64,000 nt of DNA from an uncultured Gammaproteobacteria bacterium (GCA_964625535.1 CAZVEX010000001.1:64295-128294), one strand, 5' to 3'; positions 17,634-50,333 are shown, numbered from the stretch's first letter. Notes: generated by a model from the sequence alone, not told the origin. Made by a program: numbers and translations.

Positions 17634-17742
17634 TGTATTTTGCAGTTTAAGATGAGATTGTAAAAAAGTTTTTGTGAAAAAACAAGTATCTAAATTGATA
17701 GTGATTGACAATAATTTCTTTTAATTTAAAATTAAGAGATAA

Positions 17743-33815: not shown

Positions 33816-34369
33816 TGATCAAAAGTAATATCAGGAAAATTTTAAAAGAAATAAATTTGGTCTTATCAAAAATTGAGGAAGAAGAAGTTGATAAATTAGT
33901 TGATGAAATTGTAAAAGCGCAAAAAATTATTACTATTGGAGCCGGTCGGGTAGGACTTTCCGCAAGGGGGTTTGCAATGAGGTTGGGACATTTAGGTCTG
34001 TTGTCTTTTACTACCGCAGATACTACTATTCCGGCAATAGGGGAAAAGGATCTACTTATTGTTTGTTCCGGTTCGGGTGAAACCCAGGCTGTTTATGACT
34101 TGGCATTAATCGGTAAAAACCACAAGGTAAAAATTTGCGCAATCACGGCAAATCCCAAATCAAGGATTGGACAATTGGCTGATTTAATTGTTAGGATAAA
34201 ATCGCCGACAAAGTTGAAATCTTTAAATGGTTTTAAATCCATACAACCGATGACTACTTTAAATGAGCAATGCTTGATGATTTTTTTTGATTCATTAGTT
34301 TTGAAACTGATGAAAAAGTTGGGTGAGAACGATGAAAGTATGTGGAAGCGCCATTCCAATCTAGAATGA
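33815..34369 (+). CDS. SIS-domain sugar-phosphate isomerase (6-phospho-3-hexuloisomerase/PHI-like; GmhA/KdsD-like alternatives)
   Basis: ITIGAGRVGLSARGFAMRLGHLGLLS ... LLIVCSGSGET; 184 aa single SIS domain. Confidence 0.65.
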   Translation: MIKSNIRKILKEINLVLSKIEEEEVDKLVDEIVKAQKIITIGAGRVGLSARGFAMRLGHLGLLSFTTADTTIPAIGEKDLLIVCSGSGETQAVYDLALIGKNHKVKICAITANPKSRIGQLADLIVRIKSPTKLKSLNGFKSIQPMTTLNEQCLMIFFDSLVLKLMKKLGENDESMWKRHSNLE

Positions 34370-35037
34370 AATTTAAGTTATCGGCATCTTTAATTTGCGC
34401 AAAATTAATCGCTTTGAAGCAAGAGTTAAAGCTTCTGGAAAAAGGCGGAATTGACCGCATTCATTTTGATGTGATGGACGGGATATTTGTGCCAAGATAC
34501 GGTTTGCCTCCTGAAATATTAAAAGAAGTACACCAAGTTACCAATATCCCAGTTACTGTACATCTGATGGTTTCGGATCCTGAACCATATATTGAAGTTT
34601 TTGCTAAAGCCGGGGCAGATGCATTTGTTTTTCATATTGAACCGGTATTTCATGCAAACAGGGTTTTAAAAAAGGTTAAAGATGCCGGCATGAAAGCAGG
34701 AGTAGCTCTGAATCCGGCCACCTCTCTTGGAGTTTTAGATTATGTTTTGGAGGATTTGGATCTGGTAATGCTGATGGCTATAAACCCCGGTATTTTAGGC
34801 CATAAATTAATTCCCGGAATGCTTGCAAAAATTGCAGATTTAAAAAATAAATTAAAAAATTATCCCGATATCAAAATAGAAATTGACGGTGGGGTAACCT
34901 TTGAAAGCGCCCCCAGGATGATAAAAAACGGCGCAGATATCCTAGTCTGCGGCAATTCAACAATTTTTAAACCGGATGCGTTGGTAGATCAAAAGATTAA
35001 AGAATTAAGAAAAGCAATTGCTGATTCTTTAAATTAG
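34366..35037 (+). CDS. Ribulose-phosphate 3-epimerase-like (RPE family TIM barrel)
   Basis: Start at ATG 34366 (ATGA overlap with SIS gene); HFDVMDGIFVP, VTVHLMV, GVALNPATS, LMAINPGILG, IEIDGGV, VCGNSTIF match the RPE signature series. Confidence 0.7.
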   Translation: MKFKLSASLICAKLIALKQELKLLEKGGIDRIHFDVMDGIFVPRYGLPPEILKEVHQVTNIPVTVHLMVSDPEPYIEVFAKAGADAFVFHIEPVFHANRVLKKVKDAGMKAGVALNPATSLGVLDYVLEDLDLVMLMAINPGILGHKLIPGMLAKIADLKNKLKNYPDIKIEIDGGVTFESAPRMIKNGADILVCGNSTIFKPDALVDQKIKELRKAIADSLN

Positions 35038-35038
35038 C

Positions 35039-35578
35039 TTAAACTCTTTGGTACATATCAGCTATTCTACGAATATCAGCCTCATCAGATGGGTGGGTAG
35101 GATCTGTATGAATCCAAAGTTCTGCAAAAATAGCCCGTTGCTCCAAGCCAACCGGTCGATGGCGTGTTCCAACTGGTATATGAAAACACTCTCCACTTTG
35201 ATAAGTTTGGAGCTCTTGGGGTTGTACGTCAGTTATGCTTAAATAAAGACCTACCGGACCATCTATAACCCTATTAAACTCACCCCTTCTTTCGTGAACC
35301 TGCCATGATGTCATTTGTCCAGCTTCTACTACTGTAATTTTTGGGCTAACCGTTAAAACTGTAGGTATGGGTTCAGGGAGCGGTATGCCTCCAAAATAAG
35401 TTTCTATATATAAAACCCTACACCTATCTGCTATTCTATGAAATCCTCCCCAAGGTCTCCCAAAATCTGTTTCAATTATTTCCATGCCCTGTTCATGCAA
35501 AATTTCTTCCAGTCTTCGAGAAACTTCAATTTTCGCTAAACCTGGAGGAAAATCAAAAGGTTTTAATATTTCGCTCAT
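35039..35578 (-). CDS. Cupin-domain protein (mannose-6-phosphate-isomerase-type cupin?)
   Basis: SWQVHERRGEFNRVIDGPVGLYL ... GECFHIPVGTRHRP two-motif cupin; GC-richer than neighbours. Confidence 0.4.
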   Translation of the reverse strand: MSEILKPFDFPPGLAKIEVSRRLEEILHEQGMEIIETDFGRPWGGFHRIADRCRVLYIETYFGGIPLPEPIPTVLTVSPKITVVEAGQMTSWQVHERRGEFNRVIDGPVGLYLSITDVQPQELQTYQSGECFHIPVGTRHRPVGLEQRAIFAELWIHTDPTHPSDEADIRRIADMYQRV

Positions 35579-35640
35579 TTTGTTCCTAATTATACCACTT
35601 CTTGTTCAAAAATCAACTATGGGATAAAATCAGAAAATTA

Positions 35641-35649
35641 TGGTATAAT
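35641..35649 (+). promoter_or_regulatory. Extended -10 element TGGTATAAT ~11 nt upstream of PfkB kinase start codon (leaderless or near-leaderless transcript)
   Basis: TGGTATAAT at 35641-35649, ATG at 35660; no convincing -35. Confidence 0.35.
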
Positions 35650-35659
35650 CTTTCCTGCG

Positions 35660-36634
35660 ATGACAGAAATACCCATAATTACGATTGGCGAAATGGTTAT
35701 CGACATGATTCATGAAGGGGGAGACCCCCAAGTTTTAGGGGATAGATTTTTAGCTGTACCAGGCGGTGCTCCGGCAAATGTTGCAATTGGCGTTTCAAGA
35801 CTTGGAGTAACTGCAGGTTTTATAGGAATCGTTGGGAAAGATTATTTTGGAGATCAACTGGTACGTGTTTTAAGAGAAAACAGTGTTGACACAGGTAGTG
35901 TTTTTCAGGCTGATGATGGGAGAACTACTGAGGTTAAAATTTTCCCGGGGGATGATGGAAAGAAACAAATTGAGTATAGCGGGGCGCCTGCGCATAAGTT
36001 ATTAAGTCCGGAGCATATTATTCCGGATTACTTTAAAGGTGTTAAATTCTTACATTTTTGTTCGGTTAGCCTAGCGAAAGAACTTACATATCAGGCAACA
36101 ATGAAAGCAGTAAGAATAGCTCAAGAAAGGGGTGCGATAATTTCTTTTGATCCTAATCATCGTCCGCCTGCTTGGTCGGATCAAGAACTGGCTAGGCAAA
36201 GGATTTGGGAGGGGATTAGAAAAGCAGATATTATCAAAATAAGCGATGAAGAATTACCTTTCATTGCGGAAGATGATGATACTGAAAAAGGGGTTAATAA
36301 AATATTAGCCCATTCCGACGCCGAAATTGTAATTGCAACAATGGCAGAAAAAGGAGCTTACTATAAAACCAGGAGAGGATTCGAAGCATACATTCAGGGA
36401 TTTCAAGTAGAAGTGGTGGAAGTTACTGGTGCGGGGGATGCGTTTTCTGCCTCGGTATTAGCAGATATTCATAAAAGAGGAGTAACTGGGAATCTTCATA
36501 GTCTATCGGAAAATGATTGGAGAGGTGTTATTACCAGAGCTAATGGTGCGGGAGCGTTGGCTGTTACAAAAAGGGGAGCGATACCTGCTTTACCAACAGA
36601 AAAAGAGTTGAATGATTTTCTCAATAACAGGTGA
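35660..36634 (+). CDS. PfkB-family carbohydrate kinase (fructokinase-like)
   Basis: AVPGGAPANVAIGVSRLG; DPNHRP; anion-hole VTGAGDAFSASVL; 324 aa. Confidence 0.75.
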   Translation: MTEIPIITIGEMVIDMIHEGGDPQVLGDRFLAVPGGAPANVAIGVSRLGVTAGFIGIVGKDYFGDQLVRVLRENSVDTGSVFQADDGRTTEVKIFPGDDGKKQIEYSGAPAHKLLSPEHIIPDYFKGVKFLHFCSVSLAKELTYQATMKAVRIAQERGAIISFDPNHRPPAWSDQELARQRIWEGIRKADIIKISDEELPFIAEDDDTEKGVNKILAHSDAEIVIATMAEKGAYYKTRRGFEAYIQGFQVEVVEVTGAGDAFSASVLADIHKRGVTGNLHSLSENDWRGVITRANGAGALAVTKRGAIPALPTEKELNDFLNNR

Positions 36635-36648
36635 TAGAATAGGTTTAA

Positions 36649-38238
36649 ATGAATAAATACAAAGTTTTAATTACAACATCCGGTTTGGGGCAGAGATTGG
36701 GGGAGTTGACTCAATATACAAATAAGTCACTAATCAGAGTCGGTAAAAAACCTATCTTGTCTTACATCATTGAGGCCTATCCTAAAGATACCGAATTTGT
36801 TATCACTGTCGGATATTTCGCAGACCAGATTAAAGATTTTATTAAAATCGCCTATCCCAATTTAAAGGTTACTTTTGTTCCGGTTGATAAATATCAGGGG
36901 CCTGGGACCAGTTTGGGTTATTCCATGCTTCAGGCCAAAAAATATCTGCAGTGTCCCTTTATATTCCATTGTAACGATACCATAGTTTCGGAAACTATCC
37001 CTATTCCTGATAAAAATTGGAATGGAGGGTTTAAAGGAGATTCATCTGCCAACTATTCCACATTTTCCCTGTCAAAAGACAAGGTGGGGTTAATAAACGA
37101 CAAAGGCGCGCTTGATTTTGACTTTATTCATATCGGACTTGTGGGTATTAAAGACTATGAATCGTTTTGGTACAACCTTGAATCATTAATTTTGGGTTCT
37201 TTATATAAGGATCTCCAAGATACTTCTTTAAATGATTGCAAGGTGATAAATTTAATGATCGGACAGGGTAAGGATTTTGTTGTTGAGGAGTTTACCAGCT
37301 GGTTAGATACGGGTAATGCTGATGGATTAAACAAAGCAAGAGAAAAGCTGTCAGACGGTTTTTATAATCTGGATAAATCGGGAGAATCTATTTTCATTTT
37401 TCCTAAATTTGTTATCAAATTTTATTTTGATAAAGAGTTAGTTGAAAAAAAGATTAAAAGGGCAAAAGTCCTAAAAGGTTTAGTTCCGGATATTGAGAAA
37501 TCAGTTGGTAATTTCTTTAGATATAAGTATATAGAAGGAGATCTTTATTCAGGAAGCGTCACAGTTTCGGATTTTGAAAAATTCCTCAACTGGTGTAAGA
37601 AAAATTTGTGGATTAAGAAAAATATTTTACCGGATAAAAAATTCAGGGAGCTTTGCGGCAATTTTTATATAGACAAAACAAAACAAAGGGTTCAGAAATT
37701 CTTAGAAATTACTAAAGTCGAAGATAAAGAGGAGATTATTAACGGAGATAAAGTGCCTTCTGTTACCGGGATGCTCAAAGAAATTGATTTTGCCTGGCTT
37801 TCCGCAGGAATTCAAAGCCTTATGCATGGAGATTTAGTTTTGGAAAATATTATCAAGACAAAGAGCGGTTATCAACTGCTTGACTGGAGGCAGGATTTTG
37901 GAGGAAATCTGGAAATCGGCGATATGTATTATGATTTAGCAAATTTAAATAAGAACTTTACGCTCAATCATGAATTAGTTGATAAGGGACACTTTATTGT
38001 TGAAAACAAAAGTAAGGATGTAAAGTGTGATATCCTGGAAAGCCATAATCTGGTTGAATGTCAGCAGATTTTGTGGCGTTTTATTCAAAAAGAAGGACTT
38101 GATCTTAAAAAAGTAAAAGTTTTAACAGCTCTCAAATGGCTTTCTATGTCCCCTTTGCACCCAACCCCTGTAAATTTTAATTTATTCCTTTATTATTTTG
38201 GAAAACTAAATTTATTTAGAGCGCTCAAACAAGAATGA
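36649..38238 (+). CDS. Bifunctional activation enzyme: N-terminal sugar-/aminoalcohol-phosphate nucleotidyltransferase fused to C-terminal APH/choline-kinase-fold kinase
   Basis: N-term VLITTSGLGQRLGELTQYTNKSLIRVGKKPIL (RmlA/GlmU-like G-x-G-x-R-L); C-term Brenner/APH motifs HGDLVLENII and LDWRQDFGGNLEIGDMYYDLA. Confidence 0.65.
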   Translation: MNKYKVLITTSGLGQRLGELTQYTNKSLIRVGKKPILSYIIEAYPKDTEFVITVGYFADQIKDFIKIAYPNLKVTFVPVDKYQGPGTSLGYSMLQAKKYLQCPFIFHCNDTIVSETIPIPDKNWNGGFKGDSSANYSTFSLSKDKVGLINDKGALDFDFIHIGLVGIKDYESFWYNLESLILGSLYKDLQDTSLNDCKVINLMIGQGKDFVVEEFTSWLDTGNADGLNKAREKLSDGFYNLDKSGESIFIFPKFVIKFYFDKELVEKKIKRAKVLKGLVPDIEKSVGNFFRYKYIEGDLYSGSVTVSDFEKFLNWCKKNLWIKKNILPDKKFRELCGNFYIDKTKQRVQKFLEITKVEDKEEIINGDKVPSVTGMLKEIDFAWLSAGIQSLMHGDLVLENIIKTKSGYQLLDWRQDFGGNLEIGDMYYDLANLNKNFTLNHELVDKGHFIVENKSKDVKCDILESHNLVECQQILWRFIQKEGLDLKKVKVLTALKWLSMSPLHPTPVNFNLFLYYFGKLNLFRALKQE

Positions 38239-38750
38239 AAAATTTTATCATTGATGTTGACGGATGTTTAACAACCGGACAATTTTTTTATTCCGCAAAA
38301 GGGAAAATTTATAAGGTTTTCGGGCCGGATGACGCGGATGCTTTATCAATTTTAAAAAGTAAAATTTATATTCACATGATTTCCGGCGATAAAAGAGGAT
38401 ACCCTATTACCAAGAAAAGAATTGAAGATATGAAATTTCCCTTAAATTTAGTAAGCACCTTCGAGAGACTAAAATGGATAGAAGGGAGATTTGATTTAAA
38501 AGAGACAATTTATATGGGTGACGGTATTTACGATGCACTGGTGTTTGAGAAGGTTGGTTACAGCATTGCCCCGGCCAACGCTTTTTTTATTGCCAAACAA
38601 AAGGCTGATTTTGTAACACAAGCTAAAGGTGGGGAAGGAGCTGTAGCCGAGGCCTGCTTGCATATCATGGAAAAATTCTTTGAACCGTTTGATTTATCGA
38701 AGATAGATTTATCTTCTGGTTCAGGAGCTTGGGATAATCTTAAAGTCTAG
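38235..38750 (+). CDS. HAD-IIIA phosphatase, KdsC/GmhB-like sugar-phosphate phosphatase
   Basis: FIIDVDGCLTTG (DxDG motif I), IHMISGDKRG, YMGDGIYDAL, VTQAKGGEGAVAEAC matches the KdsC family closely; 171 aa; ATGA overlap with upstream gene. Confidence 0.7.
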   Translation: MKNFIIDVDGCLTTGQFFYSAKGKIYKVFGPDDADALSILKSKIYIHMISGDKRGYPITKKRIEDMKFPLNLVSTFERLKWIEGRFDLKETIYMGDGIYDALVFEKVGYSIAPANAFFIAKQKADFVTQAKGGEGAVAEACLHIMEKFFEPFDLSKIDLSSGSGAWDNLKV

Positions 38751-39767: not shown

Positions 39768-40547
39768 ATGAAAGTTATTATTCTTTGTGGTGGTGCAGGC
39801 ACAAGATTAAAAGAAGAAACAGAATTCAAGCCAAAACCCATGGTGTATGTTGGAAACCAGCCTATCATATGGCATATCATGAAAATTTATTCTCACTTCG
39901 GATTCAACGAATTTATTCTGGCGTTAGGATATAAAGCAGAATACATTAAGGATTTTTTTCTTAACCAGAAAGCATTAACATCTGATTTTACTCTGAATAC
40001 CTCAAATTACAAAACAATTTATCACACAGATAGTAGAAAAAATCCAGATCATTTTAAAATTACATTTGTTGATACAGGTGTAGAAACTTTAATTGGAGAA
40101 CGAATCTTAATGTGCAAAAAGTACATTCCCGTTAAAGACAAATTATTTATGGTTACTTATGGTGATGGAGTTGCAAATGTAAATATTAAGGAAATTATTA
40201 GATTCCATAAGAAAAAAAAGACACTAGGTACAATAACCGGTGTTCATCCAAGATCAAAGTTTGGTCTTATTAAATTGGAAAAAGGTGGACTTGTTAAATC
40301 ATTCGTAGAAAAACCAGTATTGAATGATTGGGTAAACGGTGGCTTTATGGTTTTTAATAAGAAATTTTTTGATTTTATAAACCCCGGTGAGATGGAACAT
40401 GAGGCACTCAAAAGGATTGCTACAAAAAACGGTCTGGCCCTTTATAAACATAAAGGTTTTTGGTTTGCAGTTGATACTTATAGGGAACTTGAAGAGTTAA
40501 ATAAAATATGGGAAAGCGGTAATCCTCCCTGGAAAATATGGACATGA
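39768..40547 (+). CDS. rfbF: Glucose-1-phosphate cytidylyltransferase (RfbF/DdhA)
   Basis: MKVIILCGGAGTRLKEETEFKPKPMVYVGNQPIIWHIMKIYSHFGFNEFILALGYKAEYIKDFF is the characteristic RfbF N-terminus; 259 aa. Confidence 0.85.
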   Translation: MKVIILCGGAGTRLKEETEFKPKPMVYVGNQPIIWHIMKIYSHFGFNEFILALGYKAEYIKDFFLNQKALTSDFTLNTSNYKTIYHTDSRKNPDHFKITFVDTGVETLIGERILMCKKYIPVKDKLFMVTYGDGVANVNIKEIIRFHKKKKTLGTITGVHPRSKFGLIKLEKGGLVKSFVEKPVLNDWVNGGFMVFNKKFFDFINPGEMEHEALKRIATKNGLALYKHKGFWFAVDTYRELEELNKIWESGNPPWKIWT

Positions 40548-41572
40548 GAAGAATTTTAGTAACCGGCTCGGATGGTTATATTGGAGCGGTTCTGATTAAT
40601 AAATTATTGGAAAAAGGATATGAAGTTACAGGCTTAGATACTCTTTTCTTTAAGAACTCAGTTCTAGGTAATTATAATCCCAAATATAGACTCATAAAAT
40701 CAGATATACGGCAAATTCAAAATATAAATTTGTCTAAATTTGATGCAATAATCCACCTTGCAGCTTTATCAAATGACCCAATGGGTGAGATAGACCCGGA
40801 TCTGACAGAAGAAATAAATTACAGGGCAACTATAAAACTTGCAAAAAAGGCCAAAAAAGATCGAGTCAAAAGATTCATTTTTTCTTCATCCTGTAGCATT
40901 TATGGTAAATCTGAACAGGAAATAGTTGATGAAAATTCCAATATCAATCCTTTGACTGCTTATGCAAAATCTAAAATTGATTCGGAGAATGAGCTAAAAA
41001 AACTTGCAGATAAAAATTTCTGTGTATGTTTACCTCGGAACTCAACTGTCTATGGATATTCTCCAAAATTTAGGGATGATTTAGTAGTTAATAATCTTAT
41101 AACCCCTGCAATAGCTCTAAAAAAAATTTTTGTCAAAAGCGATGGGAGTCCTTGGCGTCCTCTTATTGACGTTAGGGATCTTGCTAATATTTTTATAAAT
41201 TTTTTAGAGATAGATAGTTATTTAGTAAATGGGCAGGTAATTAATATTGGCTTTAATGATAGTAATTATCAAGTTAATGATATTTTAAAAATAATTAAGG
41301 AACAGGTTCCTCAATGTGAAGTTATTTATACCGGTGAACATAGAGCTGATACAAGAAGCTACAGAGTTTCTTTCGATAAATTTATTTCACTTTTTCCTAA
41401 TATTAGACGGGAATGGCCATTACAAAAATCAACAAGAGATTTAATTGATAAATTAGAAAAATCAATGTTTAATGAGAAAGATTTAAATTCAAATAAATAC
41501 TCCAGAATAGAGGTTTTAAAAAGATTAATCTCGGATAAGAAAGTGGATAAAAAACTTTTTTGGATTCATTAA
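40538..41572 (+). CDS. CDP-glucose 4,6-dehydratase-like extended SDR (RfbG/DdhB-like)
   Basis: ILVTGSDGYIGAVLINKLLEKGYEVTGLD; Y-x3-K YAKSKIDSE; directly downstream of rfbF with 10-nt overlap. Confidence 0.65.
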   Translation: MDMRRILVTGSDGYIGAVLINKLLEKGYEVTGLDTLFFKNSVLGNYNPKYRLIKSDIRQIQNINLSKFDAIIHLAALSNDPMGEIDPDLTEEINYRATIKLAKKAKKDRVKRFIFSSSCSIYGKSEQEIVDENSNINPLTAYAKSKIDSENELKKLADKNFCVCLPRNSTVYGYSPKFRDDLVVNNLITPAIALKKIFVKSDGSPWRPLIDVRDLANIFINFLEIDSYLVNGQVINIGFNDSNYQVNDILKIIKEQVPQCEVIYTGEHRADTRSYRVSFDKFISLFPNIRREWPLQKSTRDLIDKLEKSMFNEKDLNSNKYSRIEVLKRLISDKKVDKKLFWIH

Positions 41573-42502
41573 ATGAATATTTTAATAACCGGCGGGACAG
41601 GCTTCATCGGTAGTCATCTTACCTTTAGACTGTTATCTTTGGGGCATAAAATAACCGTCTTAAAAAGACCAACATCAGATATCTGGCGAATAAAAGAAAT
41701 TGCCAGAAAAATAAATATTATAGATCTTGAATCTTTTAAAAATCTAGAATCTGTATTTATAAATAACAACCTCGATACAGTTATTCACTTGGCAACTGCA
41801 TATATAAAACATTCTGACAGGAGAAAAGAAATTAATCAAATGAAAAATACAAACATAACTTTCCCGTCTTTGCTGCTTAATTTTGCCATTAAAAATAAAG
41901 TTAAATATTTTATTAACACAGGCACTTGTTTTGAATACAAGCTCTCAGATACAAAAATAGATGAAAATCATAAAATATCCCCATATAATTTTTATGCCTC
42001 TACAAAAATAGCTTTTGAAGTCCTACTTAAATCTTTTGTAGAAAAAAATTACATCAGAGGAATTACCCTGAAATTATTTTACCCATATGGAGAAAAGGAT
42101 AACAATAAGGTGATTCCTCTAATGATTAAAGCTATTTTAAAAAAAGAGAAATTAAACTTAACTAAAGGTGAGCAAGAATTGGACTTTACCTATGTTGATG
42201 ATATTGTGGAGGCTTACATAAAAGCTCTTAGCTTTATTTCTTCAATAAAATATAAAAAGTATGAAGTTTTTAATATTGGAACAGATGAAGTATATAAACT
42301 AAAAAATATCGGTAAACTGTTAGAGAATTTGAGTGGAAATTATAAAAGTTTAAATTTTTCTAACCCCTATCCTTTAGATGAAATAATGTATATGTCTTGC
42401 AATTATAAAAAGGCAATGAAATTATTGAATTGGAAACCCGAAACAAGTATAATAAACGGAATAACAAAGACCTATGAGTCTTATTTAGAAAGCCTGAAAT
42501 GA
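41573..42502 (+). CDS. SDR nucleotide-sugar reductase/epimerase (CDP-paratose/abequose-synthase-like position)
   Basis: ILITGGTGFIGSHLTFRL; Y-x3-K YASTKIAFE; start codon abuts upstream stop. Confidence 0.65.
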   Translation: MNILITGGTGFIGSHLTFRLLSLGHKITVLKRPTSDIWRIKEIARKINIIDLESFKNLESVFINNNLDTVIHLATAYIKHSDRRKEINQMKNTNITFPSLLLNFAIKNKVKYFINTGTCFEYKLSDTKIDENHKISPYNFYASTKIAFEVLLKSFVEKNYIRGITLKLFYPYGEKDNNKVIPLMIKAILKKEKLNLTKGEQELDFTYVDDIVEAYIKALSFISSIKYKKYEVFNIGTDEVYKLKNIGKLLENLSGNYKSLNFSNPYPLDEIMYMSCNYKKAMKLLNWKPETSIINGITKTYESYLESLK

Positions 42503-42951
42503 TCGATGGAGTAAAAATCAAAAATTTAAAGAAAATCCCTGATGAAAGAGGAACTGTAATGCATATGCTAAGAAGTGATGATCCTGAATTTAAAAAATTT
42601 GGGGAAATTTATTTTACCACAGCTTACCCGCAAGTGATAAAAGGTTGGCATCTTCATTCCAAAATGACTTTAAACTATGTGGTAATTTCAGGAATGATAA
42701 AACTTGTTTTATACGATGACAGAAAGGAGTCAAAAACTAAAGGGGAAATAATGGAGTTATTTTTAGGTGAAGATAATTATTCCTTGGTCACAATACCACC
42801 TCTTGTTTGGAATGGATTTAAGGTTATTGGAGGTAAAACCGCAATTTTGGCAAATTGTCCGGATTTACCGCATGATCCTAAAGAGATGAAGAGATTGGAT
42901 CCATTAAAGAATAGCGTTATTCCCTATAATTGGGGCATTAAGCTAAAATAA
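42499..42951 (+). CDS. Small cupin nucleotide-sugar epimerase/ketoisomerase (RmlC/FdtA-like)
   Basis: 150 aa; GEIYFTTAYPQVIKGWHLHSKMTLNYVVISGMIKLVLYDD cupin core; 4-nt overlap with upstream SDR. Confidence 0.55.
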   Translation: MIDGVKIKNLKKIPDERGTVMHMLRSDDPEFKKFGEIYFTTAYPQVIKGWHLHSKMTLNYVVISGMIKLVLYDDRKESKTKGEIMELFLGEDNYSLVTIPPLVWNGFKVIGGKTAILANCPDLPHDPKEMKRLDPLKNSVIPYNWGIKLK

Positions 42952-42952
42952 T

Positions 42953-44182
42953 ATGCGCTCAAAATCCCCAAAAGATGATTTACGGGTTAGCTATGCTAAA
43001 GCCGTACATGGCGAGGCGGAGAAAAAAAGAGTAATAGCTGTTCTGGATGAGCACAGAACAATAATGGGTCAAGAAATTAATGAATTTGAAGAAAGAGTAA
43101 GTAAGTTTTTCGGTCGCAAATACGGAGTAATGATTAATTCAGGTTCCTCTGCAAATTTACTTGCCCTAGAAATTCTAAATTTTCCCGAAGGTTCTGAAAT
43201 AATTACCCCTCTTTTAACATTCTCAACAACTGTTGCTCCAATTGTACAAAAAAAACTTATACCGGTCTTTGCTGATGTTGAAAATGGAAGCTATCAAATA
43301 AATGTGGATCAAATTGAGAAACTAGTTACCATAAAAACTAGAGCCTTAATGATTCCTCTTCTTTTAGGAAATGTTCCTGATCTTGAAAGATTACATCATC
43401 TTGCCAGAAAGAAAAAGTTAATTCTGATAGAAGATTCTTGTGATACATTTGCAGCAATTTTTAATGGTAAACCAACCAGTAGTTTTAGCGATATTACAAC
43501 AACCAGTTTTTATGGTTCACATATAATAACTGCGGGGGGAGGAGGAGGGATGATTATGATGGATAATATGAAATGGAGAGATAAGGCTAAAGTTTTTAGA
43601 GGATGGGGTAGAAGTTCTTCTATATTTGGTGAATCAGAAAGTATTGCAATCCGCTTTAAAGCAAAAATTGGAAATATTCCATATGATGCTAAGTTTGTTT
43701 TTAGTGAACCTGGCTATAATTTTTTACCCATAGAGATGTGTGCCGCATTTGGTAATGCTCAACTAGATAAAATAAAGGACTTTAGAAAATTGCGTGAATA
43801 TAATTTTAAAAGACTATATATTTTTTTTAGAAAATATTCGAACTTTTTTGAATTACCCATACAAGATAAAAGGGTAAAAACTTGGTGGCTTTCGTTTCCT
43901 CTAACAATAAAACCAAACGCTCCGTTCACCAGAATTGAAATTATGACATATTTGGAGAAAAATAATATACAAACAAGGCCAATTTTCACGGGAAATGTAT
44001 TAAAACAACCGGGATTTAAAAAAATTCCTCACAGATTGCTTGCCGGATATGATTACCCGATTACTAATGAGATAATGAAGCAAGGGTTTGTTATAGGTTG
44101 TCATCATGGTTTGACAGATAAACATCTTGAAAAGATTGAGCGAATTTTTACGCTATTTTTAAATGAATGTGTTTCATTTTGA
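42953..44182 (+). CDS. DegT-family enzyme with His replacing PLP Lys: predicted PMP-dependent 4-keto-6-deoxy-sugar 3-dehydratase (E1/DdhC/ColD-like)
   Basis: TTSFYGSHIITAGGGGGM aligns to canonical SF(H/Y)xxKxx...GEGG with K->H as in ColD/E1; last gene of rfbF-led operon. Confidence 0.6.
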   Translation: MRSKSPKDDLRVSYAKAVHGEAEKKRVIAVLDEHRTIMGQEINEFEERVSKFFGRKYGVMINSGSSANLLALEILNFPEGSEIITPLLTFSTTVAPIVQKKLIPVFADVENGSYQINVDQIEKLVTIKTRALMIPLLLGNVPDLERLHHLARKKKLILIEDSCDTFAAIFNGKPTSSFSDITTTSFYGSHIITAGGGGGMIMMDNMKWRDKAKVFRGWGRSSSIFGESESIAIRFKAKIGNIPYDAKFVFSEPGYNFLPIEMCAAFGNAQLDKIKDFRKLREYNFKRLYIFFRKYSNFFELPIQDKRVKTWWLSFPLTIKPNAPFTRIEIMTYLEKNNIQTRPIFTGNVLKQPGFKKIPHRLLAGYDYPITNEIMKQGFVIGCHHGLTDKHLEKIERIFTLFLNECVSF

Positions 44183-44815
44183 CAAGCGTCTTGGAGTGAT
44201 TATTATAATATTGTGATTTATTTCCATATTGTAGCAATTATTTTCCTTTAAAATAATTTTTTCAATCTTAGCGATTGTTGGATAATCTTTTTTTCCCATA
44301 AACGCATCGGCATCATCTATTAAAATGACATGGCGTTTGATTTTGTGACTAAGAATAGAAGTAAGCTCTTCCCATACGGGAGTTTCCTTTATTCCTTTGA
44401 TTGTAATTCCTTTTGAATAATGAGCATCTAACCAAAATAGGCATGGCCTGTTTATTTTTTTTATAATTTTAGGTAACATAACCGAACTGTCTCCGTGTAT
44501 AATTTGTATAGTCTTAAATTTTTTAAATTTGCTTTTTGCGCGCTCGTATAATTTTCTGTCCAGTTCTATTGAATAAATCCGGGAAAAAATATTTTTATTA
44601 GCGCTTACAGTGGTTCCGAGGTAAGTGCCAGTCTCAATCAAAATTGACAACTTATATTTTGTTGCGTGGCTTTTAATTATTTCTTGTTTTATAAATTGGG
44701 GCGTATATTTATGATTACTTTCCAGAAACCACTCTATTTTTTGTAATATTTGCAAGACTGGATAAATGAGATCATATAGAAAGGTATATTTTAATTTCTC
44801 AAAAAATTTTTCCAT
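44174..44815 (-). CDS. SAM-dependent methyltransferase-like protein (class I fold, sugar O-methyltransferase candidate)
   Basis: ILIETGTYLGTTV (motif I-like), FWLDAHYSK, VILIDDADAF resemble TylF/FkbM-type MTases; 213 aa. Confidence 0.45.
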   Translation of the reverse strand: MEKFFEKLKYTFLYDLIYPVLQILQKIEWFLESNHKYTPQFIKQEIIKSHATKYKLSILIETGTYLGTTVSANKNIFSRIYSIELDRKLYERAKSKFKKFKTIQIIHGDSSVMLPKIIKKINRPCLFWLDAHYSKGITIKGIKETPVWEELTSILSHKIKRHVILIDDADAFMGKKDYPTIAKIEKIILKENNCYNMEINHNIIIITPRRLSK

Positions 44816-44879: not shown

Positions 44880-46646
44880 ATGATTACTGTTGGTTTTTAT
44901 AAGGGACATAATGCTACTGCCTGTATATTAAAGGATGGCAAAATAATTGCTGCAGTCTCTGAAGAGAGATTTAATCGGATCAAAAATGCCGACGTTTTTC
45001 CTATTGAGGCAATCAAGTTTTGTTTGAGGCAGGCAAACGTTAAAGCGCAGGATGTAGATTATTATGTCAGGACATATACGCATCCGGAGGGATTTGTCGC
45101 CTCATCCCGTGAAACAAGAATGCCGATGCTTATCCAACTATTAACTTATCTTTTAGTGTTTGCAAGAAAATTACTACTTATCTTTCCGCCTCTGATCTCT
45201 TTAGGCAGATTTTTACATGAGCTTATTTATACAAAGACTTTAACCCCTTGGTATCAAAATCAGTTTAGAAAAACTATGTCAGAATATTTGAAAATTGACA
45301 AAAATAAAATAATTTTTGCTGATCATCACACATGTCATGCGTATGCTGTATACTACGGATTTGTACCAGAGGAAAAACAAAATGAAGATTGGTTAGTGAT
45401 TACTTTAGATGGAGCAGGAGATGGGGACTGTGGAGGTGTTTGGGCAGTTGAGGATGGTAAGTGGAGCAGACTAGCTAAAACGCCGGCAGGCTCATCCATT
45501 GCGCTTTTTTATGGAATGATCACAAGATATTTAGGGATGAAGTTGAATGAGCATGAGTATAAAGTAATGGGTCTTGCCCCATATGTTTCTTCTCATGAAA
45601 TTTCCAAAGTTTATTCTTTATTTGAGGGATTATTTAGGACTGATGAAAATTTGGTTATGCATTCAAAGATTCTGTCTGGAGCACTTCTTGATTACTTTGA
45701 TACCATTTTAAGGCATAAACGCTTTGATGGTATAGCTGGTGCTGCCCAAAAGTATGTAGAAGATGTAGTTTCGGATTTAGTAGTAAAAGCTATTAAAAAA
45801 AGTGGTATAAAAAACCTAGCAGTTGCGGGAGGGTTTTTTATGAATGTAAAAGCTAATAAAAAGATTGCGGAACTCAAAGAAATTGGAGAGTTTATTCCCT
45901 GTCCTACCGCATCTGATGAGTCAACTGTTTTCGGAGCAGCATTCTTCGGATATGAGCTGCTATGCAAGCAAACAGATAAACCTTTCTCAACTGAGAATAT
46001 TAAGACTCTTTATCTGGGTCCAAAATTTTCAGATGCGGAGATAAGTGAAGTACTAAAGAAAAATAAACATTTACAAAGATATAGAGTTAAGAAATTTAAA
46101 GATATAGAGAAAAAGATAGCCTCACTTTTAGTAAAAGGTAAGATAGTCGGTAGATTTAAGGATAAAATGGAATGGGGAGCGAGAGCCTTGGGTAATAGAT
46201 CTATCTTTATGGATCCACGACGTAAGGATCTAATTATGAAATTAAATGAACAAATAAAATCCCGGGATTTTTGGATGCCTTTTGCAGCAAGCATTTTGGA
46301 TACTTGTGAAGAAAAATATATTGTAAACAGCAAAGGCATTAACGGCGAATTCATGATTTTAGGTTTTGATACAACTCGTAGGGGGAAGTCTGACTTGGCT
46401 GCTGCGATCCATCCCTACGATTTTACATGCAGGCCTCAAATTGTAAAAAAAGAGGCCAATCCTGATTATTACAACTTAATTAAATATTTTGAACAGGGAA
46501 CAGGAGTAGGTGCGATTTTAAACACATCTTTCAACCTGCACGGTGAGCCGATTGTTTGTGTCCCGCAGGATGCGATTAGTACCTTTGAAAGATGTGATCT
46601 AGAGTATTTAGCATTAGGAAGTTACCTGGTATGGAAAAAAAGATGA
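44880..46646 (+). CDS. NodU/CmcH-family O-carbamoyltransferase
   Basis: MITVGFYKGHNATACILKDGKIIAAVSEERFNRIKNADVFP is the hallmark N-terminus (Kae1/YgjD-like fold); 588 aa typical length. Confidence 0.85.
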   Translation: MITVGFYKGHNATACILKDGKIIAAVSEERFNRIKNADVFPIEAIKFCLRQANVKAQDVDYYVRTYTHPEGFVASSRETRMPMLIQLLTYLLVFARKLLLIFPPLISLGRFLHELIYTKTLTPWYQNQFRKTMSEYLKIDKNKIIFADHHTCHAYAVYYGFVPEEKQNEDWLVITLDGAGDGDCGGVWAVEDGKWSRLAKTPAGSSIALFYGMITRYLGMKLNEHEYKVMGLAPYVSSHEISKVYSLFEGLFRTDENLVMHSKILSGALLDYFDTILRHKRFDGIAGAAQKYVEDVVSDLVVKAIKKSGIKNLAVAGGFFMNVKANKKIAELKEIGEFIPCPTASDESTVFGAAFFGYELLCKQTDKPFSTENIKTLYLGPKFSDAEISEVLKKNKHLQRYRVKKFKDIEKKIASLLVKGKIVGRFKDKMEWGARALGNRSIFMDPRRKDLIMKLNEQIKSRDFWMPFAASILDTCEEKYIVNSKGINGEFMILGFDTTRRGKSDLAAAIHPYDFTCRPQIVKKEANPDYYNLIKYFEQGTGVGAILNTSFNLHGEPIVCVPQDAISTFERCDLEYLALGSYLVWKKR

Positions 46647-47338
46647 TTAAATTTTCAAAGAAATATAATTTATTTTTAACCTTCTTATTTTATGCATATG
46701 GCTTCTTAAATTCTTTGCTATTCAAGTTTCAACTTTCAGTAATTTATTATCATTACGAGAAAAAGATTTTAAACTTAATTAATAATCTTCGTTCAAGTGG
46801 AGACTTACTTCTTACAGTTGTAGAAAGCCTACAAGTGTATGAATGCGCGAGAAGTGCACAAAAAATAAAAGGGGATTTTGCAGAAGTTGGAGTTTATAGA
46901 GGAGGGAGTGCTGTAATCATTTCAGAGGTCAAAAAAGGAAAGAAGTTCCATCTTTTTGATACTTTTGAAGGGTTGCCTGATAATGAGAAAATAGATTCAC
47001 TTGTTGGGGATAATTCAATGGTAAGCAATCTGGATGAAGTGAAAAGTAAATTAAAAAGATACAAGAATGTCTATTTTTATAAAGGTTTATTTCCAAAAAC
47101 CGGGAATAAAATAAAAAAAGATAAATTTGCATTTGTGCATCTGGATGTTGATTTATACAGAAGTACAATCAATAGTTTAAAATTTTTCTACCCTAAAATG
47201 AGCAAAGGAGGAATCATACTTTCACATGATTATCCCTTTATGCCGGGAGTAAAAAGAGCTTTTGATGAGTTTTTTGAAAATAGAAGGGAATTAGTTTTAA
47301 AGCTTTCAGGAAATCAAGCTATTGTAATTAAAATATAA
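46643..47338 (+). CDS. TylF/MycF-family sugar O-methyltransferase
   Basis: GDFAEVGVYRGGSAVIISEV, FDTFEGLP, HLDVDLYRST, SKGGIILSHDY match the macrocin-O-MTase family; start at 46643 (ATGA overlap) or 46631. Confidence 0.75.
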   Translation: MIKFSKKYNLFLTFLFYAYGFLNSLLFKFQLSVIYYHYEKKILNLINNLRSSGDLLLTVVESLQVYECARSAQKIKGDFAEVGVYRGGSAVIISEVKKGKKFHLFDTFEGLPDNEKIDSLVGDNSMVSNLDEVKSKLKRYKNVYFYKGLFPKTGNKIKKDKFAFVHLDVDLYRSTINSLKFFYPKMSKGGIILSHDYPFMPGVKRAFDEFFENRRELVLKLSGNQAIVIKI

Positions 47339-47340
47339 TT

Positions 47341-48105
47341 ATGGAAAACTATGAAGCTTTAAATGCATTAGAGAATGCAGTTAACTCCATTAAGGATAAG
47401 AAGGATAGGGAATTTTCTCTAGATGCCTTTTCGGGGCATAAAAGGAGATACCTTAATGATTTAAATATTATAAGAAATTTTTATAAAGGGGGCAAAATAC
47501 TGGACATAGGTTCATCTCCATACCATATGCTATTTTTGCTCAAAAAACTTAAGTGGGATGTATATGGCATAGATATAAATCCTCAAATCTTAAGGAAATT
47601 TCAAGCACAGCACGGATTAAAAGTAAAAAGTTGCGATATAGAAAAAGAGAAAATCCCCTTTAAAGATGGTCAATTTTCTTTCATCATTTTTAATGAAGTG
47701 TTTGAGCATCTAAGGATAGATCCCCTTGCTGCAATATTAGAAGTTAAGAGAGTATTAAAAAAAGGAGGCATATTACTTTTAACAACCCCCAACCTTTACG
47801 CTTTACACAAGATTATAATGTTTAACACCGGTTTTAGTTTCAACAATGCTTTTTTTGAATTTAATAAAGTTAAAACTACCGGATATATGGGACACATAAG
47901 GGAATACTCAAATAAAGAAATAAAAGAAATACTGATAAATTCAGGATTTAGAGTTAAATACACAAATTTTGAAAATTATAATAATTTTTCAAATGTTCAT
48001 TTTTTGAAGAGATTTCCTTTAAATATCCTTGTGCTGCTTTTTGATTTTATATTAAAAATCATTCCTCCATTTAGACAGTATCAGATTGTTGTTGCAATTA
48101 AATGA
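47341..48105 (+). CDS. Class I SAM-dependent methyltransferase
   Basis: ILDIGSSPYHMLFLL (motif I), VYGIDINP, GILLLTTPNLYALH. Confidence 0.7.
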   Translation: MENYEALNALENAVNSIKDKKDREFSLDAFSGHKRRYLNDLNIIRNFYKGGKILDIGSSPYHMLFLLKKLKWDVYGIDINPQILRKFQAQHGLKVKSCDIEKEKIPFKDGQFSFIIFNEVFEHLRIDPLAAILEVKRVLKKGGILLLTTPNLYALHKIIMFNTGFSFNNAFFEFNKVKTTGYMGHIREYSNKEIKEILINSGFRVKYTNFENYNNFSNVHFLKRFPLNILVLLFDFILKIIPPFRQYQIVVAIK

Positions 48106-48112
48106 AAATAAT

Positions 48113-49183
48113 ATGAAAATCAAAAGAAGAAATCATCCTTTAGTTTCGGTTTTGATTTTAACTTACAATAGGACGGATCTTTTAAAGATGTGTCTGGACA
48201 GCGCCTTAAAATCTAACTACCCAAATTCGGAATTTATTGTTTCCGATAATGCTTCACAGGATGATATAGCGGGATTTATCAGAAAAACTTACCCCCAAAA
48301 AAAGATTAGAGTTTACAAGAAAAAGAAGAACGGTGGTTTAACAGGGGGATTTAATTTTGGCTATCAATATTGTCGGGGGAAATACGTCATGTTGCTTTGT
48401 AATGATACCACCATCGCCAAGAAATCAATTTCCGAGATGGTCAAAATGGCGGAAAATGATCCAAAAATTGGCGCGATTGCTCCGAAAGTGACACAGATGA
48501 GACATCACGGTTATATCCACAGCGCTGGTAGCTTTCTAACTTCCAGTGGCCTGCTTTACCATTATGGAGTCTATCAAAAAGATGGTAAAAAATACCAAAA
48601 AAGTTATTATATTTTCAGTACAACAGGAGCAGGATTTCTCGTTAGAAGCGAAACTATAGCAAAGACCGGACTTTACACTGAGGATTTTTTTATGGCATAT
48701 GATGAGAGTGACCTGTGTCATCGCATTTGGCTTGCCGGGTACACAGTTGTTTATTGTCCCAAGGCGGAAGTTAAACATATGTGGAGCGCCACCATGCAGG
48801 TTATGAGTAACCCCGCAATTTGGTTTTGGAACCAAAGAAACGTAAATAGTTCCTTTATCTACAATTTTCAGTTGCGATATCTATGGCGATTTTTAATTAG
48901 CATTAATCTGGCGTTTATATTTTTTTCCATCTACAGACTTTTTAGCAGGCAAAGGGTATTTTCGGCAACTATTATCCAGGCATATTTATGGCACATTTTT
49001 CATATCAGACAAACACTGAAGAAACGGAAAATTATACAAAAAAAGAGAATTGTTTCAGACCGGGAAATTTTCCAAAAAGCCATGGTAAATCCTGACTTGG
49101 GATACTATCTAATCCATTTCCGGAAAAAATATTCGGATATGGAACTGCCAAAAAGAATAATCTACAACCTCAAATCTCCTTGA
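48113..49183 (+). CDS. GT2 glycosyltransferase with C-terminal membrane segments
   Basis: LVSVLILTYNRTDLLKMCLDSAL ... EFIVSDNASQDD ... YDESDLC; C-terminal hydrophobic LWRFLISINLAFIFFSIYRLF; start 48113 or 48086. Confidence 0.8.
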   Translation: MKIKRRNHPLVSVLILTYNRTDLLKMCLDSALKSNYPNSEFIVSDNASQDDIAGFIRKTYPQKKIRVYKKKKNGGLTGGFNFGYQYCRGKYVMLLCNDTTIAKKSISEMVKMAENDPKIGAIAPKVTQMRHHGYIHSAGSFLTSSGLLYHYGVYQKDGKKYQKSYYIFSTTGAGFLVRSETIAKTGLYTEDFFMAYDESDLCHRIWLAGYTVVYCPKAEVKHMWSATMQVMSNPAIWFWNQRNVNSSFIYNFQLRYLWRFLISINLAFIFFSIYRLFSRQRVFSATIIQAYLWHIFHIRQTLKKRKIIQKKRIVSDREIFQKAMVNPDLGYYLIHFRKKYSDMELPKRIIYNLKSP

Positions 49184-50333
49184 AGGCTTTGTCAAGAATA
49201 AAATTCAGGTCGTATTTTTTTGACAACTTTATGGCGTTTGTTTTATATTTTAAATAATTCTTTTTGCTGTTTAATATTTTTTCTACGGCTTTTACAAAAT
49301 CAATCTCACTGTAGTCAATGACTATTCCCGACTTCGTTTTTGAAATTTGGGAAGCAATTGTAGTCACTATTGTTGTTATGACCGGTAATCCGCAAATAAG
49401 ATATAGTTTTATCTTAGACGGATCAGATTTATAACTTACGCTCTCTTTAAGCGGAGCATAAGGCGCAAGGCCGATGCTTGATCTGGCAACTATATTTATC
49501 AGTTTGTAATAGTCTTCAATAAAACCTAAGAACTCCACATGATTTGAGATATTTAATTCTTTTATTAATCTCTTTAATTCTTTTTCGTAATAACCAGACC
49601 CAATAATAGTAAGCTTTATTTTGGAAAATTTAGTAATAAGTTTGGGGATTGATTTAATCACAAGTTGTAGACCTGCCCATTCCAGTAATCCGCCTGTAAA
49701 AATTATTCTAAAGTAATTAATCCTATCAATCGGCATGGGTTTAATTTCTGACCTGTCATAACCGATAGGAACAATTGAAAATTGTGAGAATTGGTTTAGG
49801 GGACCATAATTTGCCTTTCTTGCATTGATTTGTTCTTTAGTAACTACCCAATTAATATCTGAATATCTGCATGAAGCTTTGTCAATTAAGTAGTAAAGAT
49901 TATTCATTATTCTGTTGTTAAAACGCTTATTTGTGTAATCTATTGAATAATAAACTAAATTATTGATTAGGCCGATTTTCCTAAAGATTAAGGTTGAAAT
50001 TAGGGATAAATTTTCACAGGCAATGCAGATATCGAATCTAGAGAAAGATCTGACGATGAAGTATGAGGAAAGTAAGAAGTGGTATATAAATTGCAGCCAA
50101 TCAGGTCCTTTAATATTTGCAACCTTCTTTTGATAAACAAGTGTGCCTCTTTTAAAAATGCTTAGAAAAGAATATTGGATTTGAGCATGCGGGAAAGGGT
50201 GTTCAATATAAACAACCGTATCCGTTCTTTTTAGTAAGTATTTAAGAATTCCTGGAGCAGCCGGACCCTGGTTTGTCCTGATTACAAAATGCGTTAAAAG
50301 TAAAGTTTTTGTACTATCTTTTTTTATTTGCAT
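49170..50333 (-). CDS. GT4-like (GT-B) glycosyltransferase
   Basis: C-terminal [52 protein letters not shown] resembles GT4 E-x7-E region; 14-bp overlap with convergent GT2. Confidence 0.55.

Follow-up and report, generated by a model that had tools for sequence, protein, structure and literature searches.

Organization of the five-gene operon

The DNA analyzed in this study is a window of 64,000 nucleotides (64 kb, the whole stretch, with positions counted from its first letter) from an uncultured Gammaproteobacteria bacterium (GCA_964625535.1, CAZVEX010000001.1:64295-128294). Five plus strand open reading frames (ORFs) at 39768-44182 encode enzymes predicted to form a cytidine diphosphate (CDP)-linked deoxysugar, and the last of them encodes a DegT-family protein, here named E1L, with His at the position of the catalytic Lys. 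An earlier note on this DNA had described the same five ORFs, and all are present where it placed them. Its RfbF-like first protein and His-for-Lys DegT last protein also hold, but its 4,6-dehydratase-like second protein does not. The genes and two features of E1L are as follows.

39768..40547, plus strand: gene 1, RfbF-like glucose-1-phosphate cytidylyltransferase, 259 amino acids (aa) (TIGR02623, PDB 1tzf, Salmonella RfbF)
40538..41572, plus strand: gene 2, SDR1, extended short-chain dehydrogenase/reductase (SDR) of the Cj1427 type, 344 aa (motif, PDB 6vo6, Foldseek)
41573..42502, plus strand: gene 3, SDR2, putative nucleoside diphosphate-4-keto-sugar C4-reductase, 309 aa (match to Salmonella CDP-abequose synthase)
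42499..42951, plus strand: gene 4, small RmlC-fold cupin of the 3ejk family, presumed C5 epimerase, 150 aa (PF00908, 3ejk)
42953..44182, plus strand: gene 5, E1L, predicted His-for-Lys DegT-fold sugar 3-dehydratase, 409 aa (PF01041, 3bcx, ColD)
43520..43522, plus strand: codon of His190 of E1L, at the position of the Lys that forms a Schiff base with pyridoxal phosphate (PLP) (alignment to E1 H220 and to the Lys of the aminotransferase in the window)
43604..43666, plus strand: loop W218-K238 of E1L, WGRSSSIFGESESIAIRFKAK, in place of the Cys-X-Cys-X7-Cys iron-sulfur loop of E1 (alignment to E1)

The successive junctions from gene 1 to gene 5 are a 10-nt overlap, a 0-nt gap, a 4-nt overlap and a 1-nt gap, and these overlaps and near-zero gaps suggest a single translationally coupled operon. 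It is flanked by a divergent glycosyltransferase family 2 (GT2) gene upstream and a convergent gene for a 213-aa protein (44174-44815, minus strand) downstream. Scanning for promoters and terminators returned 32 sites, against 27.2 +/- 5.9 in shuffled sequence, and thus no excess. The same five-gene cassette was found, identical, on two independent metagenome contigs, and a version at 81% identity is present in a metagenome-assembled genome of Candidatus Daviesbacteria. The names attached to close homologues are Levybacteria, Roizmanbacteria or Patescibacteria, from which a Microgenomates-type bacterium of the candidate phyla radiation follows as the source of the window.

The product of gene 1 scores 276 bits on TIGR02623, slightly below the cut-off of 300. 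Its best PDB match, over the full length, is the glucose-1-phosphate cytidylyltransferase RfbF of S. typhi (1tzf, 1.5e-59), the next structure following at just 77 bits, and the match to Salmonella RfbF reaches 205 bits. The family score and the full-length 1tzf match bear out the first description of this gene as rfbF-like. Gene 1 is thus shown by homology to make CDP-D-glucose, which would be the starting point of the operon.

E1L resembles the His-type sugar 3-dehydratases

E1L scores 240.8 bits on PF01041, the DegT family, and has the fold-type I fold of PLP and pyridoxamine phosphate (PMP) enzymes. Its best NCBIfam family is RfbH (NF011936), with 334 bits and therefore below the equivalog cut-off of 423. 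The closest PDB sequence is E1 (3bcx, 1.4e-69, 238 bits), followed by ColD (1e-46, 162 bits). The same order was obtained by Foldseek from the AlphaFold model, which has a predicted local distance difference test score (pLDDT) of 84; E1 3bcx stands on top with a template modelling (TM) score of 0.84, and ColD comes next.

In the motif SFYGSHII, His190 aligns gap-free to His220 of E1, and it also aligns to the Lys (SFHPVK) of the Lys-type DegT aminotransferase encoded in the same window (29588-30697). On the His pair of ColD the placement is ambiguous by one residue, since the spacer of ColD, which reads S187-H188-H189, is shorter than that of E1L by one residue; HMMER pairs H190 with H189. His190 is invariant among close homologues (120 of 120) and among the full-length representatives of 50%-identity clusters that were analyzed (140 of 140), so that His at the Lys position is a family trait and not a chance substitution. 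These comparisons support E1L as a His-for-Lys sugar 3-dehydratase of the E1/ColD type. Both parts of what had been read from the sequence, a His in the place of the catalytic Lys and an E1/ColD-like 3-dehydratase at the end of the operon, were confirmed by the alignments, the His invariance and the ranking of the best matches.

Absence of the iron-sulfur ligands in E1L

C3 deoxygenation of CDP-sugars by E1 and its reductase E3 (DdhD) uses PMP, two [2Fe-2S] clusters and flavin adenine dinucleotide, and proceeds through a radical intermediate. For the cluster ligands of E1 we take C193, C251, C253 and C261 (C-X57-C-X-C-X7-C, the motif reported by Agnihotri et al. 2004). This numbering fits both the spacing of the cysteines in 3bcx and the motif present in 56 of 63 representatives of the E1 cluster. 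The E1 loop RDCYCAPGCDNTCKKRF aligns with RSSSIF-GESESIAIRF of E1L. In this alignment C251, C253 and C261 become Ser, Ile and a gap, and the loop is likewise Cys-free in 119 of 119 close homologues. The equivalent of C193 (C163) is the sole ligand position kept in E1L; ColD keeps the same Cys, and alphaproteobacterial relatives of E1L are without even this one. E1L has four Cys in all, and only C163 and C383, which are far apart in the sequence, are conserved. The inspection for E1-specific cysteines proposed earlier thus finds three of the four gone, as in ColD, which directly supports the E3-independent mechanism suggested in the note. Both E1 and SpnQ hold a [2Fe-2S] cluster via four cysteines, and ColD is without a cluster (PMC8987622).

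The loop at W218-K238, with the conserved pattern WGRSSSxFxESExIxxRF, carries seven invariant residues in a 26-sequence alignment (W218, G219, R220, S222, E229, R234 and K238), which argues that the replacement loop is functional and not decayed.

Large intein-like insertions of roughly 330-400 aa were observed in six Fe-S-type homologues of E1 (P0180, P0209, P0214, P0227, P0237 and P0268). They lie exactly at the first Cys of the Cys-X-Cys motif (...WGR[DES]C|F...HNC|WC...). One protein of the Cys-free clade, P0129, also has Hint/intein Pfam hits, at a site that differs from the six E1-type insertions.

E1L belongs to a separate Cys-free group

A full-library search with E1L retrieved 744 cluster representatives at E<=1e-30, and 140 of them were analyzed. 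The Cys-X-Cys...Cys motif is found in about 60 and missing from about 80. By average-linkage clustering (UPGMA) on identity, which is phenetic and was applied to a sample biased toward E1L, three main groups were obtained, containing E1, E1L and ColD, respectively. Fe-S-type sequences make up 56 of the 63 representatives in the E1 group and none of the 38-45 in the group of E1L. The ColD group (15-20 representatives) is Cys-free at the stricter cut, and two Fe-S-type sequences join it at the looser cut. The group of E1L separates from E1 at about 37% identity and forms a cluster apart from ColD at about 31% identity. By sequence, E1L is clearly neither a ColD nor a canonical E1. Some members of its group are fused to GMD-like SDR, RmlC-like or RmlD-like domains, and these fusions tie the group to deoxysugar 4-keto chemistry.

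Members of the alphaproteobacterial clade are named 'aminotransferase' only by the NCBI pipeline, whereas Cys-containing relatives are named rfbH; some members of the E1L family are already labelled 'E1' by automated annotation. A 2022 review lists E1, ColD and SpnQ as the only characterized types, and no report of a Cys-free, CDP-operon-linked 3-dehydratase was found in the literature. It appears that the gene family has been seen by annotation and that its distinct cofactor status has gone unremarked. The first reading had regarded a CDP-linked, E3-independent enzyme as unusual. This is correct with respect to the characterized enzymes but not by genomes, where the lineage is large and often located beside rfbF or rfbG.

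A second His-for-Lys DegT protein is encoded in the window at 16464-17711 (minus strand), with a likely start at Met27 and a length of about 389 aa. Its motif reads STHAAH, its loop, RDWGRILDFENRKKG, is without Fe-S cysteines, and it shares 34% identity with E1L. It falls in another small Cys-free cluster, where its nearest representatives are P0215, P0192 and P0212. The gene is directly followed by one for an RmlD-like reductase (15555-16460, minus strand). Together with E1L, this protein indicates that two different putative 3-dehydratase paralogues free of iron-sulfur are encoded in the window.

Gene clusters of the relatives and search for E3

A total of 85 distinct further loci were collected; a single-protein scan of genome contigs gave three, and an alignment-based metagenome scan 80 more. 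Forty of the loci span 8 kb or more; of these, 15 contain an RfbF-like gene and 21 an RfbG-like gene, and 12 contain both. Cys-free orthologues with 47-48% identity to E1L occur on plasmids or chromids of cultured alphaproteobacteria, namely Roseibium aggregatum, Palleronia, Ensifer adhaerens and Sinorhizobium. The proteins of the first two are WP_229005991.1 and WP_124113346.1, respectively. The two loci inspected, L089 (Roseibium aggregatum NZ_CP045632) and L090 (Palleronia NZ_CP045421), share the order rfbF, rfbG, E1L, methyltransferase (large S-adenosylmethionine type, about 415 aa), NAD(P) oxidoreductase and GT2, which suggests a C-methylated CDP-3,6-dideoxyhexose as the product. In the Levybacteria locus L006 the cassette consists of genes for RfbF, an RfbG-type SDR (TIGR02622, 224 bits), SDR2, the cupin and E1L.

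An E1L orthologue of 66% identity lies outside the five-gene cassette in the Patescibacteria contig JAMCQT010000017 (L007/L008). It is convergent with a split transketolase-like pair (Transketolase_N and Transket_pyr/C), and genes for a GT2, an acetyltransferase, a Lys-type DegT protein and an RfbF-like protein are located further along. This context gives a hint of a yersiniose-like branched-chain sugar.

No match to Salmonella E3 was found by phmmer at E<=1e-3, either in the window, translated in six frames, or among about 95 related loci, and no E3 or ferredoxin-like ORF was detected in the same set by scanning for plant-ferredoxin and ferredoxin-NADP reductase motifs, a scan that did recognize Salmonella E3 itself as positive control. 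The remark that no E3 reductase is evident was therefore sustained across this set. However, E3 is likewise missing next to the Cys-containing rfbH of one Azospirillum locus, so its absence from a neighborhood is weak evidence when taken alone and is not decisive.

SDR1 is closest to the C4-dehydrogenase Cj1427

SDR1 possesses the motif SSSCSIYG...YAKSK, and hhalign places its S118-C119-S120 on the S-D-K of RfbG. Verified CDP-glucose 4,6-dehydratases read TSDKCY in Salmonella RfbG and TTDKVY in C. jejuni HS41.20 (PMC12369002 supplement), and the RfbG-type protein of L006 reads SSDKSY. The residue after the catalytic Ser varies among the relatives of SDR1, being C, A or Q. SDR1 has no match to Salmonella RfbG at E<=1e-3, and TIGR02622, the RfbG family, is not among its NCBIfam matches. 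Its best PDB sequence match is Cj1427 (6vo6, 4e-31). The AlphaFold model (pLDDT 93) likewise retrieves Cj1427 chains (6vo6/6vo8) in the six top Foldseek places, followed by C4-epimerases, TunA and MoeE5, with 4,6-dehydratases appearing from rank 22 only. The segment R..TV[FY]G.SP..R.DL.VN is common to SDR1 and Cj1427. Cj1427 oxidizes C4 of heptoses linked to guanosine diphosphate (GDP) without dehydration, and its tightly bound NADH is recycled by alpha-ketoglutarate (PMC10680097).

A role of SDR1 as canonical 4,6-dehydratase was rejected on account of Ser-Cys-Ser in the place of Ser/Thr-Asp-Lys and of Cj1427 as closest relative. The description of gene 2 as a 4,6-dehydratase-like SDR was accordingly abandoned. 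A tyvelose-type 2-epimerase was rejected as well, with no such PDB match at E<=1e-8.

In this operon, in L010 and in three further loci of Patescibacteria, the gene that comes directly after the RfbF-like one is that of SDR1. The three (L091, L093 and L095) carry genes for RfbF-like, SDR1, RmlC-like (176 aa), RmlD-like (about 285 aa) and GT2 proteins, an RmlABCD-like set that is the usual setting of the SDR1 family, and may represent a CDP-L-hexose or CDP-6-deoxy-L-hexose pathway widespread in the candidate phyla radiation. The slot after rfbF is the RmlB position, and it equally matches the Cj1427-Cj1430-Cj1428 arrangement. SDR1 and RfbG are interchangeable at this slot, because an RfbG-type SDR occupies it in L006. 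A further dehydratase-like SDR, bearing Glu, is encoded separately in the three SDR1 loci inspected, and this argues against SDR1 as just one more 4,6-dehydratase. Since the 4-keto group must come from something and SDR1 is fixed next to rfbF, we infer that SDR1 oxidizes C4 and supplies the 4-keto sugar.

As gene 2 is not of the 4,6-dehydratase type, the product may be a CDP-3-deoxyhexose and not a 3,6-dideoxyhexose; on C6 deoxygenation at this locus we lean to 'no'. From the CDP-linked 3,6-dideoxyhexose put forward in the earlier note, the CDP start and the 3-deoxygenation stand, while the 6-deoxy part is unproven. SDR3 (30666-31637, STSEVYG) may be a remote supplier of 4,6-dehydratase activity, but is part of a conserved oxidoreductase-acetyltransferase-aminotransferase unit 9 kb from the operon.

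SDR2 and the small cupin

Of the proteins encoded in the window, SDR2 matches Salmonella CDP-abequose synthase best (79.9 bits, 2.6e-23). It has a YASTK triad and neither an acid pair nor dehydratase residues, and in L006 it is conserved beside a true RfbG-type dehydratase. The abequose synthase match and the lack of dehydratase residues point to SDR2 as a putative C4-ketoreductase, analogous to abequose synthase or AscF. SDR2 as 4,6-dehydratase was rejected due to its resemblance to abequose synthase and its co-occurrence with the RfbG-type enzyme in L006.

The cupin has the RmlC fold (PF00908, 40.9 bits), and its best PDB match is the structural-genomics protein 3ejk, a 'dTDP sugar isomerase' (1.2e-37). 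The columns of the catalytic Lys and Tyr of RmlC are occupied by Leu/Asn and Ala/Asn in the cupins of the window and L006 and in 3ejk, with only a His kept. Among the fetched loci, the cupin and the dehydratase co-occur in L003/L009 and L006 only. A function as C5 epimerase is plausible by analogy with AscE and the C5-epimerase of C. jejuni HS:5. The 150-aa cupin epimerase described before thus stands as an RmlC-fold cupin, whereas 'epimerase' is a presumption in a protein that lacks the Lys and Tyr of RmlC.

Proposed pathway and alternative explanations

The reading we favor, with moderate confidence, is that the operon converts glucose-1-phosphate to a CDP-activated 3-deoxygenated hexose for a surface glycan, and that E1L represents a third, Fe-S-free lineage of His-type 3-dehydratases that occurs widely, in many cases linked to rfbF and rfbG. 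By homology, the RfbF-like enzyme would form CDP-glucose from glucose-1-phosphate and cytidine triphosphate. All steps after this one we infer for this locus. SDR1 would then oxidize C4 and release a CDP-4-keto sugar, its Cj1427-like site favoring plain C4 dehydrogenation over 4,6-dehydration. The PMP of E1L would form a Schiff base with the 4-keto group, His190 would take the C4' proton, and the 3-OH would be expelled. The resulting ene-amine (sugar-ene) would be hydrolyzed as in ColD to a 3-deoxy-4-keto sugar, ammonia and PLP, with no need for E3, and L-glutamate would regenerate PMP on E1L. The small cupin might invert C5, as a weakly supported step, and SDR2 may reduce C4, judging from its similarity to abequose synthase.

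ColD, free of Fe-S, is established to use PLP and L-glutamate so that alpha-ketoglutarate and ammonia are formed (PMC8987622), and the C3-dehydratase of C. jejuni HS:5 likewise depends on PLP and L-glutamate and liberates the same two products (PMC10680097, PMC10440746). With these precedents and the [2Fe-2S] ligands of E1 missing, a ColD-like resolution is the most likely one for E1L, which probably works without a partner reductase.

Several points weigh against this proposal. E1L is closer in sequence to E1 than to ColD (238 versus 162 bits), and its chemistry after water loss could differ from that of ColD, for example by use of a diffusible or unrelated reductant. SpnQ, a His-type enzyme, is able to transaminate under some conditions (PMC8987622). 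The absence of E3 covers the 64-kb window and about 95 loci, and an E3 or ferredoxin system may be encoded elsewhere in the genome. The loop W218-K238 has low pLDDT in the monomer model, where this region is poorly modelled. SDR1, the putative supplier of the 4-keto substrate, is assigned by sequence and model comparison, and the cupin is without known epimerase residues. No biochemical study of any member of the lineage was found in the literature.

How the 4-keto substrate is made leaves two variants, to each of which we give rather less than an even chance. In one, the Cj1427-like SDR1 feeds CDP-4-keto-glucose to an Fe-S-free 3-dehydratase, by which a CDP-3-deoxyhexose with its 6-OH intact would be made in nature; this is offered tentatively. 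E1L and SDR1 could here be coupled by cofactors, the glutamate used by the former yielding alpha-ketoglutarate and this in turn re-oxidizing the NADH of the latter. Such a combination of C4-dehydrogenase and C3-dehydratase has so far been reported only in vitro, by mix-and-match with GDP-heptoses (PMC10680097). In the other, which is possible but doubtful, the pathway is the same and SDR1 is a non-canonical CDP-glucose 4,6-dehydratase, so that the product would be an ascarylose-like CDP-3,6-dideoxy-L-hexose. The position of SDR1 in the RmlB/RfbG slot after rfbF, both here and in the RfbF-SDR1-RmlC-like-RmlD-like-GT2 cassettes, speaks for it, as do the RfbG-type enzyme in this slot of the L006 cassette and the RfbG-like genes that adjoin most clade relatives of E1L. 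However, the S/T-D-K shared by all verified CDP-glucose 4,6-dehydratases that were examined (those of Salmonella, C. jejuni HS41.20 and L006) is replaced by S-C-S in SDR1, and the relatives of SDR1 vary at the +1 residue (C, A or Q). Its nearest neighbors by both sequence and structure are the non-dehydrating Cj1427 and then C4-epimerases, and in the three loci with a separate Glu-bearing dehydratase-like SDR it would be redundant.

Departures from the ColD-like mechanism are much less probable. It is improbable that E1L acts like E1 and SpnQ, through two one-electron reductions by a reductase or ferredoxin encoded elsewhere, even though it is closer to E1 than to ColD, SpnQ draws on general cellular ferredoxin/flavodoxin reductases (PMC8987622), the Fe-S-type rfbH locus of Azospirillum has no adjacent E3 either, and the view is limited to 64 kb of the genome. 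A cluster-binding motif is absent: equivalents of C251, C253 and C261 are missing in every clade member, the only two conserved Cys are far apart in sequence, and E3 was not found in about 95 loci. Without a cluster, we know of no electron route to the PMP-sugar adduct. We consider it marginally more improbable still that E1L is a transaminase or other PLP enzyme, forming for instance a CDP-4-amino sugar, and not a deoxygenase. The DegT fold and the bare pipeline name 'aminotransferase' of clade members would suit this explanation, but the His is kept in 140 of 140 relatives, whereas the Lys-type aminotransferase of the window (29588-30697) keeps its Lys, and His is unable to form an internal aldimine. 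The family is fused to, or neighbored by, sets of dehydratases, epimerases and reductases, as is typical of routes to deoxysugars and not to aminosugars, and no N-acyl or N-methyl transferase is present in the operon. SpnQ does transaminate if its reductase is absent, but under the conditions in which it did so, no such activity is reported for ColD and E1 in the review (PMC8987622).

Comparison with known systems

E1 (AscC/DdhC/RfbH, 3bcx) is the best sequence and structure match of E1L and shares with it the SFYxxH motif, the same His spacing and an upstream rfbF. It differs in that E1L is without three of the four [2Fe-2S] Cys, scores below the RfbH cut-off, belongs to a separate lineage at about 37% identity, and has no E3 partner that could be found in the window or in about 95 loci. 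ColD (2gms) is likewise of the His type and without an iron-sulfur motif, and it provides the mechanistic model adopted here for E1L. However, it forms a separate cluster at about 31% identity, has a spacer one residue shorter before the catalytic His, and acts on a GDP-mannose-derived substrate together with GMD and ColC, whereas the operon of E1L begins with a cytidylyltransferase. SpnQ, the 3-dehydrase of thymidine diphosphate-4-keto-2,6-dideoxyglucose, is of the His type and has no dedicated E3. Unlike E1L, it still has the [2Fe-2S] motif, and it depends on ferredoxin or flavodoxin reductase pairs.

The pathway to GDP-3,6-dideoxyheptose in C. jejuni HS:5 resembles the proposed one in the sequence of 4-keto formation, PLP/glutamate-dependent C3-dehydratase, cupin C5-epimerase and SDR C4-reductase. 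Its substrates are GDP-heptoses, its dehydratase is ColD-like, and the natural partner of the latter is a 4,6-dehydratase and not Cj1427. In vitro, Cj1427 and the HS:5 dehydratase together yield 3-deoxy sugars keeping the 6-OH (PMC10680097). Cj1427 and SDR1 share GxSPxxRxDLxVN, and in both the catalytic Ser/Thr is followed by residues that are polar and not acidic, but their identity is 28-30%, and the nucleotide would be CDP for SDR1 instead of the GDP of Cj1427.

If the proposal is true, many bacteria make CDP-3,6-dideoxyhexoses by a simpler ColD-type route, and E1/E3 is one solution and not the rule. The E1/E3 system is hard to reconstitute, and one group obtained no activity, which was blamed on defective clusters (PMC7851689). 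An Fe-S-free enzyme would avoid these problems, and an oxygen-tolerant single-protein 3-dehydratase for CDP-4-keto-6-deoxyglucose would ease the synthesis of CDP-tyvelose, CDP-paratose, CDP-abequose and CDP-ascarylose. The orthologues in cultured Roseibium and Ensifer make the hypothesis directly testable, and Roseibium aggregatum and Palleronia are tractable systems for this. The Cj1427-like SDR in the place of RfbG may also denote a new class of CDP-hexose C4-dehydrogenases in Patescibacteria.

Other genes in the window

The 64-kb window is a glycan-biosynthesis region throughout. It holds eight extended SDRs, three DegT-fold proteins and many GT2/GT4 genes, together with methyltransferases, a carbamoyltransferase and GT-C-like membrane proteins. 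Four genes identified by Pfam are located downstream of the operon.

44880-46646, plus strand: NodU/TobZ-type carbamoyltransferase
46631-47338, plus strand: TylF-like O-methyltransferase
47341-48105, plus strand: methyltransferase
48086-49183, plus strand: GT2 glycosyltransferase

These genes (44880..49183) are cut off from the operon by the convergent minus strand gene of the 213-aa protein and have no demonstrated link to it. A 6-O-carbamoyl group would fit a kept 6-OH if the genes at 44880-48105 tailor the sugar of the operon, for which there is no linking evidence.

Upstream, the plus strand region 28025-31637 encodes a GFO/IDH/MocA oxidoreductase, a hexapeptide acetyltransferase, the Lys-type DegT aminotransferase and the SDR with STSEVYG. 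It is a conserved unit resembling WbpB/WbpD/WbpE and is also found upstream of RfbF-SDR1 in L095. The plus strand genes at 33815-38750 code for a SIS-domain isomerase, a ribulose-phosphate 3-epimerase, a PfkB kinase, a protein of 529 aa (weak nucleotidyltransferase match in the N-terminal part, kinase-like motif HGDLxxxN in the C-terminal part) and a small HAD-type phosphatase. This set may provide an activated sugar or alditol phosphate by a route of its own. On the minus strand, 50314-51276 encodes a GDP-L-fucose-synthase-like SDR (NF047922, 292 bits, below the cut-off) with the motif GTICAYP. No GDP-mannose 4,6-dehydratase that would serve it is visible in the window, and this gene is also found with the cassette in L003 and L006.

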